A DNA stretch of 53,045 bases, taken from the NCBI GenBank assembly GCA_041678445.1, contig JBAYOD010000001.1, positions 1 to 53,045 of the forward strand, written 5' to 3'. Below the pieces are notes generated by a model. It was not told the origin of the DNA and searched no databases. It saw only the letters and a program-made list of their open reading frames with translations. Positions 9,640 to 17,885 of this stretch are shown here, piece after piece. A program made the position numbers and the translations under genes. Every line of letters begins with the position of its first letter. Within the stretch, counting starts at the first letter, position 1. Source of the DNA: Burkholderiaceae bacterium. Lineage in GTDB: Bacteria; Pseudomonadota; Gammaproteobacteria; Burkholderiales; Burkholderiaceae_E.

Positions 9640-11223
9640 ATGACTGCTCGACTCCAGCACCTGCTTCAGTCTCCTGCCGGCTCCCGGCGCCTGTTCCTGT
9701 CGGCCCTGCTGGTCCTGACGGCACTGCGGACCGCATTGGCCGCGGGTCTGGCGTTCACGGGTGACGAGGCTTACTTCGCGTTCTGGGGCATTTACCCGGC
9801 CTGGGGCTATTACGACCATCCACCGATGGTCGGCTGGTGGCTGGCTGCCCTGGCGGCGCTGTCGACCGAAGCTTTCGTGATGCGGTTGCCCGCGCTCGCG
9901 CTGCCGCCGCTGCTGGCCTGGATTGCGTTCCGGATCGCGCGGCGGCACGGTGAAGTCCTGGGCTGGAATGCGGCGACGCTGACCTTGCTGCTGCCGCTGA
10001 ACGCGGTGAATGTCGCGATCACCTCCGACATTCCGCTGATGCTGTTTGCCGGTCTGTGCGTCTGGGCGTGGCTGCGTGCCTTGCGCACGGGTCGGACGGC
10101 AGACTTCCTGCTGACCGGGCTGATGCTGGCGGGCGCGCTGATGTCGAAGTACTTCGCCGGCCTGCTGGCGCTTGCGCTGTCTGGGCATGCGCTCTGGCGA
10201 CCGCAGCGGCGGCGCCTGGCCGGTCTTCTCTGGGTGATCGTCGGCACGCTGCCGGCGGCGGTGGTCCAGGTCGCCTGGAATGCGCAGAACTGCTGGCCGA
10301 ACGTGATGTTCAACCTGGTCAACCGCCACGAAGACGCCGGGGTGTCGTGGCAGACCCCGGTGCTGTTCGTGCTCTCGGTGCTCTATGTGCTGACCCCGCC
10401 GGTAGCCTGGCGCTTGCTTGGCGGGCGGCGCGATGCCGATGCTGCAGCAGGAAATGTTGCAACCGGGACCGCAACCGAGGCTGCGGCCGAACTCGTCGCG
10501 CTGCGCTGGCTTGCGCTCGTACCTCTGGCGATCCTGGCGCTGCTGTCGCTGTTCAAGACGATCGGCGTGCACTGGCTGGCGAGCTTTGCGCTGCCTGCCG
10601 TACTGGCCTTCGTGTTGATGGCGGGGCCACGGATGCTGGCGCGCGGCGTGATCTGGGCGGGCGCGCTGGCCGTCGCCCAGTGGGTGTTGATCGCGGTGCT
10701 GCTTGCCTTGCCGACCGAGACCTACCGCCACTGGAAAGGCTATCCAGGCCTGGTCATGACGATGCATGTCGATGAACTGGCCGAGGCGCTCGAACCCTGG
10801 CGCGGCCGCTACGCGATCGCTTCGTCGGGCTATTCGCCTGCCGTTACGCTGGGTTACGGCTTGGGCAGCTACGTGTTCGTCTTCGGACCGGGCTCCAGCC
10901 ATGCTCGTCATGACGATATTCTGACCGACCTGCGCGGGCTGGCCGGCAAGGACATCCTGGTCGTTCGCAAGGACGGTGACTATTCGCGCACCGAGTACGA
11001 ACCGTTCTTCGATTCGGTCGCGTATCGGACGCTGGCGTTGCGCGGCGTCGTCTTCCACCTGATCGAGGGGCACGGCTTTCGCTACGAGCCCTACCGCGAC
11101 GAGGTGCTCGAAACGATCCGCCAGCGCTGGTATGCCGTGCCGCAATGGCTGCCGTCGGGATCGTGTTATTTCTGTGACCGGTACTTTCCTGAGCGGACCT
11201 GCCGAAGGAGCGGCAATCCATGA
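9640..11223 (+). CDS. ArnT/PMT-like (GT-C fold) membrane glycosyltransferase
   Basis: DEAYF...WGYYDHPPMVGW, D-x-P, LMSKY motifs, many TM helices, soluble C-terminal domain. Confidence 0.85.
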   Translation: MTARLQHLLQSPAGSRRLFLSALLVLTALRTALAAGLAFTGDEAYFAFWGIYPAWGYYDHPPMVGWWLAALAALSTEAFVMRLPALALPPLLAWIAFRIARRHGEVLGWNAATLTLLLPLNAVNVAITSDIPLMLFAGLCVWAWLRALRTGRTADFLLTGLMLAGALMSKYFAGLLALALSGHALWRPQRRRLAGLLWVIVGTLPAAVVQVAWNAQNCWPNVMFNLVNRHEDAGVSWQTPVLFVLSVLYVLTPPVAWRLLGGRRDADAAAGNVATGTATEAAAELVALRWLALVPLAILALLSLFKTIGVHWLASFALPAVLAFVLMAGPRMLARGVIWAGALAVAQWVLIAVLLALPTETYRHWKGYPGLVMTMHVDELAEALEPWRGRYAIASSGYSPAVTLGYGLGSYVFVFGPGSSHARHDDILTDLRGLAGKDILVVRKDGDYSRTEYEPFFDSVAYRTLALRGVVFHLIEGHGFRYEPYRDEVLETIRQRWYAVPQWLPSGSCYFCDRYFPERTCRRSGNP

Positions 11224-12198: not shown

Positions 12199-12274
<76 letters not shown>

Positions 12275-12539: not shown

Positions 12540-12761
12540 TGTGGCCAGATCGTCGAATCCGCGCCCTCGTTGGCGGCACTGCCAGCCAGAGTATCGCCGC
12601 GTTGCAGCAGGCCGCGCTGGCCACGCGACCCGAGGGGCTGGGCATTCTGGAGCTGCGGGTGTTCGATTTTCAGAGGTCTTCAGGGTTGCGCTTGCGAGTG
12701 TTCCCATTCATCCCAAGATGCTCCACAAACTGGACTGCTGACTCCAAGAGGCGGCGCTGAC

Positions 12762-12917
12762 GTCGAATGCCGATTCATCGAGGACTCGCTGTGGCTCACG
12801 CAGGCGCTGATGGCCGAGCTGTTTCAGGTCAAGGTGCCGACCATCAACGAGCACCTGAAAACCCTGTACTCCGACGGCGAAATCCAGCCCGAGGCAACCA
12901 TTGGGAAATTCCTGATA
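12762..12917 (+). pseudogene. RhuM-family N-terminal fragment
   Basis: VECRFIEDSLWLTQALMAELFQVKVPTINEHLKTLYSDGEIQPEATIGKFLI; no start codon or RBS, truncated. Confidence 0.75.
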
Positions 12918-12936
12918 GCGGCAGGTGGACTGACGT

Positions 12937-13350
12937 TCAGGTCTCCCACGGGTTGATCAGTTGCACGCCGAGGTCCGCGAAGTCTTTCGTGTTGCGCGTG
13001 ACCAGTGTCAGGTCATGCTCCAGAGCCGTGGCAGCCAACATGCCGTCGATCACCGGGAGCGTGCGCCCCGCGCTGGCCTGCACGCGGCCCCAACGGTCGG
13101 CAACCGCAGCGTCGATGTTCAGTAGCCGTCCGATGAAATAGTTGGGCAATTCCACTTCCAGCCAGTCCGTGAGGGTCTGGCGGAACGCGGGGTTGGCCAC
13201 GCCTTCGATACCTTTGCGGATTTCGCCGCGGCTCAAGACCGAGAGGTAGAGCGACTGGCGTGGGCGCGCCTGCATCCACGCCACCACGTTGGTGTCGGCT
13301 TTCCTGTTCCGTAGTTCGGACAGGACGTTGGTGTCGACGAGGTAGCTCAA
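12937..13350 (-). CDS. vapC: VapC PIN-domain toxin
   Basis: LVDTNVLSE, GEIRKG, VIDGMLAATALEHDLTLVTRNTKDF; 4-nt overlap with the antitoxin. Confidence 0.93.
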   Translation of the reverse strand: MSYLVDTNVLSELRNRKADTNVVAWMQARPRQSLYLSVLSRGEIRKGIEGVANPAFRQTLTDWLEVELPNYFIGRLLNIDAAVADRWGRVQASAGRTLPVIDGMLAATALEHDLTLVTRNTKDFADLGVQLINPWET

Positions 13351-13598
13351 AACGTGATCTCGCGCGGCAGGCTGCGGCTACGTTCGAACTGGATTTCATC
13401 GTGGCCCGACAGCGGCGAGGCACGCATGAAGTCCACCAGCGACTGCTCGTTGCCGGACAAGCGGTCAAACAATTCGCGCGACACCACGACTGCCACCGAT
13501 TTCCCGTGCAGGGTGATGTCCTGCGGGCCTTCTTGGACCGCGCGCTTGACCAGTTCCGAGAACCGCGCCTTGGCGTTTTGCATTTGCCAGCTTTGCAT
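13347..13598 (-). CDS. Phd/YefM-family antitoxin
   Basis: MQSWQMQNAKARFSELV...GPQDITLHGKSVAVVVS; directly upstream of the PIN toxin. Confidence 0.92.
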   Translation of the reverse strand: MQSWQMQNAKARFSELVKRAVQEGPQDITLHGKSVAVVVSRELFDRLSGNEQSLVDFMRASPLSGHDEIQFERSRSLPREITF

Positions 13599-13612
13599 GA
13601 CCAACTCTTTAA

Positions 13613-13640: not shown

Positions 13641-13708
13641 GAATCTTGCCAGATTCCCACCTCTATGGCAAACCGCATTTCCATCCTCGTCGCGCTCGAA
13701 GGCGCTGA

Positions 13709-14056
13709 TACTTCCAGCGATGGATGCGCAAGACCGATCTGACCGATGTTGCCCTGTGCAAGGCCGTCGAGGAGATGGCTGGCGGGCTGATCGACGCTGA
13801 TCTCGGCGGCGGCGTGGTGAAGAAGCGCATCGCGCTGGCCGGACGTGGCAAGCGCGGAGGGGCGAGAACGCTGGTTGCCACGAACAAGGGCAAGCGCTGG
13901 TTCTTCGTGTTCGGCTTCGAGAAAAACGACCGGGCCCACATCAGTGACGACGAACTGGAAGGCTTGCAAGCCATCGCCGCCGACCTGCTGGCTCGCACCG
14001 GAAAGCAGTTGGATGAAGCCGTCGCCGACGGCATGTTGCAGAAGATCTGCCAATGA
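13709..14056 (+). pseudogene. RelE/HigB-like toxin, 5'-truncated (internal ATG at 13724)
   Basis: YFQRWMRKT...GLIDADLGGGVVKKRIALAGRGKRGGART...FGFEKND; in-frame TGA at 13706-13708 where the N-terminus should be. Confidence 0.75.
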
Positions 14057-14211
14057 CCACGAAGACCAAAGCCAGGAGCCGCGTCCTTGAAGCCGTCCAT
14101 GAGACGGCCAACGATCTGCATCGCTTGGGTTTCATCGACAAGCGCCCCAGCGGCCCGTCGCAGAGGTTGCTGGACATCATCGAGCGCAAGGGGCTGGAAG
14201 CCGTCCTCTGA
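14053..14211 (+). pseudogene. Xre/HigA-like antitoxin with in-frame deletion of the HTH (52 aa)
   Basis: MTTKTKARSRVLEAVHETANDLHRLGFIDKR joined directly to PSGPSQRLLDIIERKGLEAVL; ATGA overlap with the toxin. Confidence 0.75.
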
Positions 14212-14270: not shown

Positions 14271-14834
14271 TCAACCCGGCTTGCGCGCCAGCATCGTGGC
14301 GAACTGCAAGCGGGCGCCATTGTGCATGGTGCCAGGATCCTCGTTGTACTTGACGAGTTCCCAGCCTGCATACGCCGCACTCAGTTCACCTGGCTTCAGG
14401 GTAAACGGGAAATTCATGGGACAAGGGTATGCATCGGTATCCATCGCGCAGACGATCAGGTTGTACCCCCCGGGCAGGGTGCGATGCTGCATGTCGGACA
14501 ACACCGCGCCCACGCGCGACGGATCAATGAACATCAGGGTCACGGTGCAGGCGATCAAACCATAATCCGCACCAATCGCGGCTTGCTGAATGTCATAGAC
14601 CTGCGGCCTGATCGTACGGATCCCTTCCTGATCGACGATGGACTGCAGCGTCGCGATGGCGTTGGGGTTGACATCGACAGCCGTGACCTCGAAACCACGC
14701 TGACTCAGGTACAGGGCATTGCGCCCGCTCGAGCAACCCATGTCCAGGGCATTGCACGGCTCGACGAGTTCGCACGCCTTCACGATTTCGCTGTGGGCCG
14801 GGGTCAGGCCGTAACGGCTGTTCAGATCTTCCAT
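14271..14834 (-). CDS. tehB: Tellurite resistance SAM-dependent methyltransferase
   Basis: YGLTPAHSEI, ALDMGCSSGRNALYL, TVTLMF, GGYNLIVCAMDT, FPFTLKPGEL, KYNED. Confidence 0.92.
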   Translation of the reverse strand: MEDLNSRYGLTPAHSEIVKACELVEPCNALDMGCSSGRNALYLSQRGFEVTAVDVNPNAIATLQSIVDQEGIRTIRPQVYDIQQAAIGADYGLIACTVTLMFIDPSRVGAVLSDMQHRTLPGGYNLIVCAMDTDAYPCPMNFPFTLKPGELSAAYAGWELVKYNEDPGTMHNGARLQFATMLARKPG

Positions 14835-14956
14835 CGACTGAAATCCTTGTAAATCATGACAGGCCAGGAGCCCGGGTCGCCGTTTTGTGAAGGCGATGCT
14901 CGCCCGGTGATGATAGAGCCTCCTGGGAAAACCTCGGGTTGCACTGAGACTGAGAG

Positions 14957-14985
14957 TTGTGGCGGTCGACGATCTTCGCTATAGT
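14957..14985 (+). promoter_or_regulatory. Putative sigma70 promoter for the riboswitch-metK transcript
   Basis: TTGTGG-17 bp-TATAGT, ending 8 nt before the aptamer. Confidence 0.55.
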
Positions 14986-14993
14986 CGGTTCTC

Positions 14994-15092
14994 GTCATCA
15001 AGAATTGGGCCGACGCCCATGCCAACCTGCCCGCCCGGGCAAGGTGGATCGCGAAAGCGGATGTGGCTCCCGAGGGGGCAACGAAGCGGGCA
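14994..15092 (+). ncRNA. SAM-I/IV-type riboswitch aptamer
   Basis: CATC-AAGA (P1/J1-2); P2 tgggc-cgac-gccca; P3 CCAACC...AGGTGG; cgc-GAAA-gcg; GATG closing P1; P5 gctcc-cgag-ggggc; 3' tail gcgggca complementary to tgcccgc in P3 (pseudoknot); upstream of metK. Confidence 0.75.
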
Positions 15093-15100
15093 CAGCGTCG

Positions 15101-15131
15101 GCCCTCCCGTGAAACGGAGGGCTTTTTGTTT
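15101..15131 (+). terminator. Riboswitch-linked intrinsic terminator
   Basis: gccctcc-cgtgaaac-ggagggc-tttttgttt; its 5' arm overlaps an alternative 10-bp helix (15007-15016 with 15095-15104). Confidence 0.85.
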
Positions 15132-15262
15132 TCACTTCTTGTTTTCAGTGTCTGCCGTCGATTCGCGCACCATCCAGATCTGTCTGGAGGCGGCGAGGCT
15201 CTGCGGCTGATCTTGCTGAAGTAGAGCGAAGGGCGTGGTCTGCCCGCTGCAAAGCAAATGAC

Positions 15263-15322
15263 TGGGGGGATTTGATCCGGATTGCCGCCCCCGACAGATC
15301 GTCGAACGCGGCTAAACAGGAG
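15263..15322 (+). ncRNA. SAM-II riboswitch, copy 1
   Basis: ggggg-GATTTGATCCG-GATTGC-cgccccc-(loop)-GCGGCTAAA-CAGGAG follows the SAM-II pattern (GAUUURA...UUGC...GYRGCUAAA) and ends on the RBS. Confidence 0.8.
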
Positions 15323-15329
15323 CCATTCC

Positions 15330-15578
15330 ATGTTTATCAGCTTGCCTCCCGGCGTACCTGCCCGGTTGGTCACCGTGTCGGGATCATCTCGCATTCGCAT
15401 CGAAATCGAGGGGTTGGCGCCACTTGGCTACGACCCTGAAGACAAGCGGTTGTTTGTGTTCGGCGATGCACGCCGCAGACCCGTGGAATCACCACTGTCG
15501 GTGTTTCAAACTCGTGCCTTGCTGCGTGCTCTGGCAGGGTACGCGGCTGAACGACGGGCCTTCTACGCCAGTTCTTGA
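15330..15578 (+). CDS. Hypothetical 82-aa protein downstream of a SAM-II riboswitch
   Basis: AGGAG RBS 7 nt before ATG; MFISLPPGVPARLVTVSG...RAFYASS; stop lies just before the second repeat copy. Confidence 0.65.
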   Translation: MFISLPPGVPARLVTVSGSSRIRIEIEGLAPLGYDPEDKRLFVFGDARRRPVESPLSVFQTRALLRALAGYAAERRAFYASS

Positions 15579-15614
15579 TTGGTCGTGTGGTCTGCCCGCT
15601 GCAGAGCACTGGAC

Positions 15615-15674
15615 CGGGGAGATTTGATCCAGCTTGCCGCCCCCGACACATCGTCGAATGCGGCTAAAGAGGAG
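15615..15674 (+). ncRNA. SAM-II riboswitch, copy 2
   Basis: cgggga-GATTTGATCCA-GCTTGC-cgccccc-g-(loop)-GCGGCTAAA-GAGGAG immediately before the metK start. Confidence 0.85.
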
Positions 15675-15679
15675 TGATG

Positions 15680-16873
15680 ATGTTTGTTCGTAATGGTCTG
15701 TTTTCCTCGGAGTCTGTCTCCGAGGGCCACCCCGACAAGTTGGCCGACCGCATCTCCGATGCGGTGCTCGACGAGTTCCTGGGTCACGACCCATTGGCAC
15801 GCGTTGCCTGCGAAACCTTGCTGGCTGACCAGTGCGTCGTGGTCGCAGGCGAGTTCAAGACCCGCAGCCCTGAAACCTTCCGCTCCGTGCGCGAACGGGC
15901 TGTGACGATCGTGACCAAGGTTCTGCACGACGCGGGCTATCGCGACAGCGCCACGGGTATCGACCCGGAGCGCTGCGAAATCCAGGTCCGGTTCAACGGC
16001 CAGTCGGCCGATATCAACCGGGGCGTGGACCGTGGAGATGGCGTGATCGGTGCCGGAGACCAGGGCCTGATGTTCGGGTACGCCTGCGATGACACCCCCG
16101 AACTGATGCCGGCGCCCATCGTGTTCGCACACCGGCTTGTGCGTCGCCAGGCCGAACTGCGCCGAAATGGCGTCCTTCCCTGGCTCGGGCCAGATGCCAA
16201 ATCTCAGGTGACGTTCCGGTACGAAGCGGGGCGACCCGTGGCGATTGAAGCCGTCGTGCTGTCCACGCAGCATGATGCGGAAATCGATACCGAGGCGCTT
16301 CGCGCGGCGGTGAGTCGCGAGATCATCGACGTCGTGATCCCCGCCAGGCTTCGGGCGCCGAACTATCGCGAATTGATCAACCCCACCGGCCGCTTCGTGA
16401 CCGGCGGACCGAAGGGAGATACCGGGCTCACCGGTCGCAAGATCATCGTCGACACCTACGGCGGCGCGGCGCCCCACGGCGGCGGAGCGTTTTCCGGGAA
16501 GGACCCGTCGAAAGTCGACCGGTCGGCTGCCTACATGGCGCGTTTTCTCGCCAGGCAAGTGGTGGCACGTGGCTGGTCGACCCGGGCATTGGTCCAGCTC
16601 GCCTACGCGATCGGCGTGGCCGAGCCGGTGAGCTTCCTGGTCGAAGCCGAGGGTGTGACGCGTGCGCGCAGCGCCGAGATCGTCGACGCCTTGCGCCGGG
16701 AGTTCGACCTGACCCCGGCCGGGATCATCCGGTGCCTCGACCTCCAGCGGCCCATTTACTACCCGACCGCGGCCTACGGCCACTTCGGCAGGGATGACCT
16801 GGATCTGCCGTGGGAGGGCGTTCGACTGGAAAAGCGAGGGAGGACGGATGGCAACTACATCAAAAGCGCGTGA
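15680..16873 (+). CDS. metK: S-adenosylmethionine synthetase (island-borne)
   Basis: SESVSEGHPDK, GAGDQGLMFGYA, DAKSQVT, GGPKGDTGLTGRKIIVDTYGG, GGAFSGKDPSKVDRSAAY, YGHFGR; alternative starts 15674/15677. Confidence 0.97.
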   Translation: MFVRNGLFSSESVSEGHPDKLADRISDAVLDEFLGHDPLARVACETLLADQCVVVAGEFKTRSPETFRSVRERAVTIVTKVLHDAGYRDSATGIDPERCEIQVRFNGQSADINRGVDRGDGVIGAGDQGLMFGYACDDTPELMPAPIVFAHRLVRRQAELRRNGVLPWLGPDAKSQVTFRYEAGRPVAIEAVVLSTQHDAEIDTEALRAAVSREIIDVVIPARLRAPNYRELINPTGRFVTGGPKGDTGLTGRKIIVDTYGGAAPHGGGAFSGKDPSKVDRSAAYMARFLARQVVARGWSTRALVQLAYAIGVAEPVSFLVEAEGVTRARSAEIVDALRREFDLTPAGIIRCLDLQRPIYYPTAAYGHFGRDDLDLPWEGVRLEKRGRTDGNYIKSA

Positions 16874-17504
16874 TCGCCACTTGCTGTTTCACGGGGAGCT
16901 GTCAGACGCTCCAGGGCGCAACGAATCGTGGGACGAGTACCTCCGATACCGGGGTGACAACCGGTGGGAGCTGATCGCCGAGGGGACAGATTTTTCAGGC
17001 ACCGGCGTCGCCGGGACGATCAGGGAGGTGATGAGCACCAAGGCAATGGTGAAGTGGGCCCTGGAACGGGACGAAGAGACCCGGGAAGCCTCAAGAAGAG
17101 GCGCCGTTCCGCTCGACGAGCCCGATGATGACGATCCGCCAAGGCAGTTCGGACCGCATGCGGCACGCCTGCGTGAGATTGCCGCCAGTGTGGGCGCTAC
17201 CTATTGTCTGTCGCGCCTGGACGGCTGGCTTGCAGGCTCATGGCCACCGAAGCAGCGCGCGGCCCGTATTCTGGACATCAAGGGTGTCACGCGGCGGAGC
17301 GTGTGGATCGGTGTCCATAGCGGCGTGTACGAGGTCGACAGCAATCTGGGCCCGGCCTACCTGTATCCGCCTGGCGCCGATCGGGCAGCGAAGCTCGTTC
17401 TGAAGTCAGAGACTTCCACGTCGGCAGGTTGGGTCGTGAAGGTTCCCATCAAGCTGATGGCGAAGATCGAGGCTCTGAAGCCCGACCTGGAGTCGCTGGG
17501 GTAA
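16848..17504 (+). CDS. Hypothetical 218-aa protein overlapping the metK 3' end
   Basis: GGAGGA RBS before ATG 16848; protein-like composition; no recognisable motif. Confidence 0.7.
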   Translation: MATTSKARDRHLLFHGELSDAPGRNESWDEYLRYRGDNRWELIAEGTDFSGTGVAGTIREVMSTKAMVKWALERDEETREASRRGAVPLDEPDDDDPPRQFGPHAARLREIAASVGATYCLSRLDGWLAGSWPPKQRAARILDIKGVTRRSVWIGVHSGVYEVDSNLGPAYLYPPGADRAAKLVLKSETSTSAGWVVKVPIKLMAKIEALKPDLESLG

Positions 17505-17597: not shown

Positions 17598-17885
17598 TCA
17601 ATCGTCCAGCTCGATTTCCTTGGCGTAGCGCTTGCCGTTGCGCACCACGTAATCGACTTCGACCCTTTGGCCCACCTTCAGGTCGGAGAACCGTTTCAGG
17701 TCGTCGTCGTAGTCGGTGCGATCGTCGGCGAAGAAGGTCTTGCCCTCGACGACGAAGCTGCGGGCTTGCTGATCGATCGATTCGATCAATCCTTCGATAT
17801 CGCGGTCATCGTCAGCCCAGGCGCTGGCGGAGAAGGCCAGGGCCATGGCCAGGCCGATGGCTTGCAGGAATCTGGTGGTTGGCAT
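17598..17885 (-). CDS. Small secreted OB-fold protein (DUF5666-like)
   Basis: Signal peptide ending AWA; IEGLIESID...SFVVEG...DLKVGQRVEVDY...AKEIEL. Confidence 0.8.
   Translation of the reverse strand: MPTTRFLQAIGLAMALAFSASAWADDDRDIEGLIESIDQQARSFVVEGKTFFADDRTDYDDDLKRFSDLKVGQRVEVDYVVRNGKRYAKEIELDD

Follow-up and report, generated by a model that had tools for sequence, protein, structure and literature searches.

The DNA analyzed here is a stretch of 53,045 nucleotides (nt), referred to below as the window, which covers positions 1-53,045 of the forward strand of contig JBAYOD010000001.1 in the assembly GCA_041678445.1 of a Burkholderiaceae bacterium (95% complete, 352 contigs). The subject of this study is the unit at 14271-17504 of the window, in which three putative riboswitches for S-adenosylmethionine (SAM) are arranged in series with a small open reading frame (orf82), a gene for SAM synthetase (metK) and a second open reading frame (orf218). 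A preliminary description of this DNA had proposed an 82-residue frame, metK, an overlapping 218-residue frame and a divergent tehB gene, and all of them are present where they had been described. We compared the unit with related loci in other genomes.

The first switch is a SAM-I/IV riboswitch aptamer (14990-15095, + strand). Its score with the Rfam model RF01725 was 58.2 bits, compared with a gathering score of 41.1, and it was the only such aptamer found in this genome. It is followed by an intrinsic terminator (15100-15132, +) consisting of a hairpin at 15100-15123 and a U-tract (fold z -2.9), so that the SAM-I/IV-like aptamer plus terminator proposed earlier was confirmed. We also located an antiterminator (15007-15104, +), in which the P2 arm of the aptamer at 15007-15016 is complementary to 15095-15104, overlapping the 5' side of the terminator. 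The two folds of the leader are nearly equal in energy (ON, -58.5 kcal/mol; OFF, -57.1 kcal/mol), and 39 of 49 relatives retain the complementarity between the P2 arm and the terminator, compensatory variants being seen among them. Without SAM, the P2 arm would pair with the 5' arm of the terminator, so that transcription would read through. A promoter had also been proposed here. The sequence at 14957-14985 (+; TTGTGG-17-TATAGT) is a weak sigma-70-like match of 8/12, under the bar of the promoter scanner, but a pattern of this type stands at the same position in 14 of 44 relatives, as against 0.32 expected by shuffling.

The other two switches are copies of one element. The first copy (15235-15322, +) has a 5' hairpin, a pseudoknot, a P3 helix and a Shine-Dalgarno sequence, and the second (15587-15674, +) overlaps the ribosome-binding site of metK; together they form a direct repeat of 88 nt with 88% identity. 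They scored 83.8 and 82.7 bits with our model R1, of which the first copy is itself a member. With the Rfam models for SAM-II (RF00521) and SAM-V (RF01826), both copies remained under the gathering scores (SAM_V, 23.1 bits with E 0.39 against 41; SAM_alpha, 13.9 and 13.3 bits against 36). Thus, the Rfam scan recommended in the preliminary description placed the SAM-I/IV aptamer above gathering and the two repeats below it.

In order to clarify the structure of the repeated element, we aligned 112 distinct relatives (alignment A2), leaving out 5 of 117 motif copies as divergent or chance matches. In this alignment 97.3% of the cells pair, compared with 89.9% after shuffling, and none of 500 shuffles reached the covariation score, a control that may be inflated by relatedness; in slid controls the paired fraction fell to 34-59%. 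Compensatory changes occurred in P1, P2 and P3, at columns left free by the search pattern. The H-type pseudoknot of P1 and P2 is supported by changes on both sides of a pair, 38 at pair 29-53 and 12 at pair 7-35, and the P3 helix by 41 such changes at pair 37-45, while P2a is paired in 97.6%. The AGGAG sequence pairs with a loop UCC, and in 98 of 116 copies a start codon follows at a distance of 6-8 nt. Both copies in the window also contain the U-A.U triple core when aligned to the Rfam consensus, although the search pattern fixes these bases and their invariance in A2 is therefore uninformative. The extra 5' hairpin folds better than shuffled sequences in 92 of 117 copies.

A P3 helix and a Shine-Dalgarno sequence inside P2a are listed as features of SAM-V in excerpts of PMC6061858. 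Because the repeated elements have these features, we regard them, judging from their pairing pattern, as SAM-V-type variants that miss the Rfam cut-offs; we file them as probably working like SAM-V and not as Rfam members. The two switches that had been called SAM-II-like are thus real and show covariation, but their layout is of the SAM-V type rather than that of SAM-II. From the covarying antiterminator and the pairing of the Shine-Dalgarno sequence, all three switches are predicted to be OFF with SAM bound, as had been supposed; the binding of SAM itself we infer. After read-through at low SAM, each SAM-V-type switch would release the ribosome-binding site of its own downstream gene, so that the genes would be gated twice. 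As a separate observation, two spirochaete genomes (L188 and L191; motif 9999-10067) carry a longer variant of the SAM-V-type motif before ahcY-metK in a housekeeping setting, and such a leader may be the source of the repeated switch.

The metK gene (15677-16873, +; likely start ATG at 15680) encodes all three Pfam domains of a SAM synthetase. Its product is 57% identical to the housekeeping MetK encoded on contig C327 of the same genome, and its catalytic motifs are intact. In a tree, the window MetK groups with island copies from mixed alpha-, beta- and gammaproteobacterial hosts, apart from the housekeeping copies, and the source names of its close homologues are Hydrogenophaga, Hyphomonadaceae and Rhodospirillales. 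These results indicate that the window metK is, as far as its sequence tells, a second, non-vertical and intact copy, in agreement with the earlier idea of a spare MetK that is not the only, vertically inherited one of the genome. No Rfam riboswitch was matched at the housekeeping metK in the locus fetched from C327. We also considered the residues at the interface with T3 SAMase as a sign of MetK escape from this enzyme and set them aside as uninformative.

A second, very divergent MetK clade, 25-28% (about 26%) identical to housekeeping MetK, occurs after MoxR-vWA genes in other members of the family. In these members (L139, L151, L166, L167, L169, L177 and L189) the GHPD motif and the main Lys and Asp residues are kept, the GAGDQG motif is changed, and the metK-like gene stands behind genes for a MoxR AAA protein and a DUF2201/vWA protein. 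These two proteins might act as a chaperone of the divergent MetK.

The first frame, orf82 (15330-15578, +), encodes a small conserved protein with 5 close homologues. A profile search gave 14 matches, 12 of which look like family members, and one homologue is fused to a cargo family that often comes after metK; Pfam, PHROG and PADLOC gave no match. The second frame, orf218 (16848-17504, +), overlaps the end of metK by 26 nt and encodes a two-domain protein with 89 homologue matches. Its structure model had a pLDDT score (predicted value of the local distance difference test) of 84. The fold search gave no clear match (best Z 5.2, with only residues 4-101 well tested), and neither BFVD at E 0.001 nor the Atlas contained one. 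A search of 399 further genomes of the class gave no orf218. Homologues of orf218 lie in switch-controlled operons at L115, L140, L277 and L311, as part of longer proteins in the first two. The fixed module of orf82, metK and orf218 assumed in the preliminary description found no support, since L277 and L311 carry both frames without metK. That is, orf82 and orf218 are real cargo but are not tied to metK.

Between the first two switches, at 15148-15224 (+), blastn and translation against L277 revealed the remnant of a DUF3293 gene, of which the first and last codons are left and about 340 nt are lost. The first two switches are adjacent in the window because of this loss. Thus, the apparent tandem is best read, from this sequence comparison, as the scar of a DUF3293 deletion, and the deletion explains why the core gene of the family was invisible in the preliminary description.

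DUF3293 was studied in the related loci. The structure model had a pLDDT of 94.8, and in a comparison with 48,161 chains its best match was T3 SAMase (7ock_L; Z 9.0, root-mean-square deviation 2.7, 99 residues aligned), the next match having a Z of 5.8. In BFVD the model matched annotated phage SAM hydrolases (E 5e-4, template-modelling score 0.53-0.55). Foldseek on the Protein Data Bank (PDB) returned the same T3 SAMase chain at an E of only 0.46, and the Z was only 4.7 with the SAM lyase Svi3-3 and 4.6 with the SAM-AMP lyase 9gab. Searches by sequence against the PDB and PHROGs gave no match. In an alignment of DUF3293 (A6, from which 3 of 33 rows were removed as false), G92 and Q124 are conserved in all 30 sequences and E102 in 29 of them. 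By topology, their strand and loop positions are like those of G56, E69 and Q104 of Svi3-3. A Gly, a Glu and a Gln are strictly conserved in SAM lyases, according to excerpts of PMC7877911 and PMC12255297. DUF3293 of the related loci is therefore predicted, from its model, to share the ferredoxin-like fold of the T3 SAM lyase together with the conserved Gly/Glu/Gln set. Among the BFVD matches there were also SAM-lyase-like domains inside large phage proteins (ART-PolyVal-like, structural or labelled RelA/SpoT) and in cyanophage proteins.

Of the 251 genomes of the order, 47 contain DUF3293. When 30 DUF3293 loci were sampled regardless of switches, both switches were present at 3 and the second switch only at 1; hence the switch-linked form of DUF3293 is a minority. 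Rfam confirmed SAM-I/IV at 1 of the first 20 of these loci.

With the pattern of the repeated switch, a search of one-genome-per-species data gave 119 loci (about 150 by estimate), mostly in Betaproteobacteria and with some alpha- and gammaproteobacterial hosts. Flanks were available for 80 of the 119. The set used for counting contained 78 non-redundant long loci, that is, 86 minus 8 (5 near-duplicates, one chance match in Campylobacter and the two spirochaete ahcY-metK leaders). The typical order is SAM-I/IV, DUF3293, the SAM-V-like switch and cargo. Of the 76 loci with enough flank, 48 have a SAM-I/IV element no more than 1.2 kb upstream. DUF3293 is the gene immediately ahead of the second switch at 34 of the 78 loci, and metK is found downstream in 29 of 78 (23/48 where at least 5 kb was available). 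At least two second switches are present in 21 of the 78 loci. The mixed layout of three switches, for which the preliminary description knew of no precedent, is not unique: SAM-I/IV plus at least two second switches occurs in 12/78 loci, and two tandems of SAM-I/IV followed by SAM-II are in print. The cargo includes MoxR-vWA, SNF2, FGase, macro, ADP-ribosylglycohydrolase, SLOG, HD and HDAC/Sir2 proteins and many unknown families. Clusters c3, c4, c5, c9, c10, c12, c16, c17 and c18 are recurring cargo without a match in Pfam, PHROG or PADLOC, and c3 and c12 often stand directly behind the second switch. In PADLOC-DB 2.0 (2023 library), orf82, orf218, DUF3293 and the main cargo had no match at 1e-20 except to generic helicase models. 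All but 8 of 144 large singleton proteins were run through PADLOC. One contig classed as viral (L001, 7347-13056) carries a complete cassette, comprising SAM-I/IV, DUF3293, the switch, metK, a further switch and SNF2.

We next consider the neighbours of these loci. We counted type I, IIG or III restriction-modification (R-M), BREX, DISARM-like and DUF499/DUF1156 systems and Dcm with Z1/Mza as SAM-dependent DNA-methylation systems, and used as controls 40 stretches from the same order centred on RelE-family toxin genes. Genes of such systems were present in 18 of the 55 loci that extend over 10 kb or more (L102, L115, L117, L119, L122, L124, L129, L133, L143, L147, L163, L165, L171, L174, L175, L183, L187 and L194) and in 3 of the 40 controls, or 4 with a weak hit (Fisher p 0.005). 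The strictest count was 17/54 against 4/40 (p 0.023); the weak hits L130 and L240 entered alternative tallies only. A seed-based tblastn search gave 0 of 40 controls, yet it had missed a type I system seen by PADLOC, and for this reason the PADLOC counts were used. The same cargo is next to a type I R-M system at L117 and, at L194, to a DUF499/DUF1156 system. Four further loci, reached via DUF3293 and chosen for a switch or an island MetK, carry a type IIG-like methylase, BREX, MmeI and DUF1156, respectively; the DUF1156 locus repeats L194, and the other three are new. At L313 (6581-19999), an HD gene, an island metK, a Sir2 gene and a DUF3293 fusion lie directly upstream of BREX. Thus, of the co-occurrences that the preliminary description wanted examined, the enrichment of the family beside SAM-dependent defence was found, but a bond of orf82 and orf218 to metK was not.

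Phage SAM lyases are a classic means to disable type I R-M and BREX. From the above findings, we think that the unit is a copy of an island operon that opens on SAM collapse, likely under attack by a phage SAM lyase, and that a spare and divergent MetK beside R-M or BREX would be a coherent answer to such an attack; we consider the arguments for and against this reading to be about evenly balanced. It is coherent because, according to excerpts of bioRxiv 2023.02.27.530186, T3 SAMase cleaves SAM and also binds MetK, and alternative MetKs lessen its anti-BREX effect. The operon would stay shut while SAM is plentiful, and the trigger for opening it would most likely be a phage SAM lyase that drains SAM to disable methylation-based defence. 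The window copy, as a reduced member, would then make the spare SAM synthetase and the orf82 and orf218 proteins, that is, the resupply arm only. In intact members DUF3293 would likely act first, because it lies behind the first switch only, either as an amplifier that binds or cleaves SAM or in competition with the phage enzyme, and the doubly gated cargo, such as MetK and damage-reversal enzymes, would follow. We infer that phage would induce the family and that the family would rescue defence.

A bolder form of this reading, which we hold tentatively and a little short of an even balance, is that the riboswitch serves as an immune sensor. The switch would be a SAM-collapse alarm that detects counter-defence by phage SAM lyases, and the response would be made up of DUF3293, taken as a domesticated homologue of SAM lyases, together with an alternative SAM synthetase and swappable repair or effector genes, each with its own SAM-V-type switch. 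If this is true, DUF3293 would represent a large bacterial family of SAM lyases.

Several findings weigh against the reading of an operon that answers phage SAM lyases. No SAM-dependent system was seen within the fetched flank at 37 of 55 loci, and SAM-independent systems adjoin the family too (Zorya at L140, Dpd at L177, Ssp at L185, AbiL/AriA-like at L159, Zac at L175 and McrBC at L311), so the cassette may merely share defence hotspots. The enrichment compares related loci, which are not independent, with controls that are perhaps less island-like. In the genome of the window itself, no N6, C5 or N4 DNA methylase scored over the cut-off or matched a seed, and hence the window copy seems to have nothing nearby to rescue. 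At the contact positions of T3 SAMase (taken from bioRxiv 2023.02.27.530186), the island and housekeeping MetKs of this host differ from that of E. coli alike, and thus give no sign of escape from inhibition by T3 SAMase. Rescue also agrees poorly with an active lyase, since such an enzyme would deplete SAM even more. In addition, 26 of the 30 DUF3293 loci sampled regardless of switches match neither switch profile, L277 and L311 have the order SAM-I/IV, DUF3293, second switch, orf82 and orf218 with metK absent, and tehB stands in no recurring neighbour cluster of the related loci nor in the DUF3293 loci examined. Finally, only three viral contigs carried the second switch, but mobile carriage means that the cassette may have a role on the side of the attacker.

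Other explanations must be weighed against these data. The operon might simply be homeostatic, with the SAM-gated spare MetK covering the SAM demand of the large DNA methylases in the islands and with no link to phage. According to excerpts of PMC2864571, it is usual for metK to be controlled by SAM riboswitches; the MetK is intact, and methylase neighbours are enriched. However, no metK lies downstream in the fetched DNA at 49 of 78 loci (25/48 with at least 5 kb), the commonest gene is instead a predicted relative of SAM lyases, and the macro, ADP-ribosylglycohydrolase, SLOG, HD, Sir2/HDAC, MoxR-vWA and SNF2 cargo does not consist of methionine-cycle genes; we consider this explanation rather unlikely. 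The preliminary description had named counter-SAMase rescue, SAM-triggered defence and homeostasis side by side. The enrichment beside SAM-dependent defence favours the first two over plain homeostasis, while the fixed module and the role of tehB found no support. In another, quite unlikely explanation, DUF3293 is an active lyase that deepens the SAM dip and locks the switches ON, and the infected cell shuts down through a futile cycle of ATP and methionine with MetK or through toxic cargo. The putative retention of the conserved Gly/Glu/Gln set, the position of DUF3293 behind one switch and of the cargo behind two, and the existence of members without metK agree with such a latch. The window, on the other hand, lost DUF3293 yet kept MetK intact, lyase activity is itself a prediction, and the unknown cargo families scanned matched no PADLOC model except that of a generic helicase.

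It is also conceivable, but improbable in our view, that the cassette belongs to the attacker, that is, a mobile element arrives with a SAM lyase and antidote enzymes of its own and thereby weakens the restriction of a new host, with the switches and MetK making a self-limiting pulse. This lyase fold is known from phage anti-restriction in excerpts of PMC7877911, the cassette is mobile across classes and occurs on the three viral contigs, and its cargo resembles damage-reversal enzymes. Nevertheless, since the switches are predicted to be OFF at normal SAM, they would be silent on entry, and the cassette often adjoins the very SAM-dependent systems that the lyase would disable. Among 72,556 plasmids and 50,697 phage records, moreover, no match covered the unit and only generic metK matches appeared. 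The window copy, taken alone, might be a decaying relic without current function, considering that its DUF3293 is deleted, that toxin-antitoxin debris surrounds it and that no DNA methylase was found in the genome. We regard this as very improbable, because the three switches, their pairing partners, the MetK motifs and both frames are all intact.

The family that we read as a candidate answer to SAM lyases resembles several known systems. Like the SAM-I/IV riboswitches of RF01725 (Weinberg 2010, PMC2864571, excerpts), the window element scores above gathering and has a terminator platform with metK downstream; the copies of the present family, however, head mobile island operons in which the first gene is usually DUF3293 and not a methionine-cycle gene. 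With SAM-II and SAM-V, the repeated elements share the AUUUG / UUGC / GCUAA pseudoknot core, P3, the Shine-Dalgarno sequence in a short P2a (SAM-V) and the translational position, but they score below both gathering scores, have an extra 5' hairpin and are repeated before single genes within operons. Excerpts of Sherlock 2022 (PMC9481103) include two tandems of SAM-I/IV followed by SAM-II, in which a transcriptional switch likewise precedes a translational one, and these two examples may belong to the present family. Here, in contrast, the switches are usually separated by a gene, further copies of the second one occur, and the surroundings are defence islands. DUF3293 is predicted to resemble T3 SAMase and Svi3-3 in its ferredoxin-like fold and in the Gly/Glu/Gln positions, whereas it is bacterial and island-borne, would be produced at low SAM only and is paired with its own MetK, and in the window it is deleted. 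The SAM-AMP lyase of type III CRISPR systems (excerpts of PMC12255297) is a bacterial lyase of the same fold inside a defence system, but no CRISPR link was seen at the loci of the family, and its structural match was the weaker one given above.

In the open-access literature, with most subscription papers outside this scope, we found no paper that links SAM-riboswitch operons to defence islands and none that names DUF3293, and the literature searched described no bacterial answer to phage SAM lyases. The system is therefore apparently undescribed; its parts (SAM-I/IV, SAM-V, MetK and SAM lyase) are of known kinds, and its mechanism is a proposal. The family offers a directly testable candidate answer to phage SAM lyases in which a metabolite-sensing RNA is the trigger. 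It also gives DUF3293 a candidate function, adds a SAM-V-type variant missed by Rfam, and supplies a set of unknown cargo genes that a cell probably needs once SAM fails. If the operon serves only to top up SAM, the finding shrinks to a variant of riboswitch-controlled metK.

The surroundings of the unit in the window agree in part with the tRNA-anchored island full of toxin-antitoxin genes that had been described. A gene for tRNA-Ala(CGC) (12199-12274, +) marks the left edge of a low-GC island (GC 0.62, compared with 0.67-0.68 in the flanks), and the island contains a PIN toxin and Phd antitoxin pair (12937-13604, - strand; PF01850 and PF02604) and a RelE-family toxin with a short 52-residue partner (13724-14211, +; toxin PF06296, E 1.9e-39). 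The partner has no Pfam match and is likely a truncated antitoxin. In the window we found the tRNA 3' end only once, and the island frames scanned included no integrase. Gene fragments lie at 12744-12956 and 13665-13724; one of them may resemble the RhuM family and one the start of a prophage tape-measure protein, and the first of the pair had no match in Pfam.

The tehB gene (14271-14834, -) encodes a TehB-type methyltransferase (PF03848) and is divergent from the unit. It was found beside none of the relatives, and we therefore rejected it as a member of the cassette; a role for it in the unit found no support, and it is likely a bystander. At the right edge of the island, a gene for a DUF5666 protein with a signal-peptide-like start (17598-17885, -) converges on orf218.

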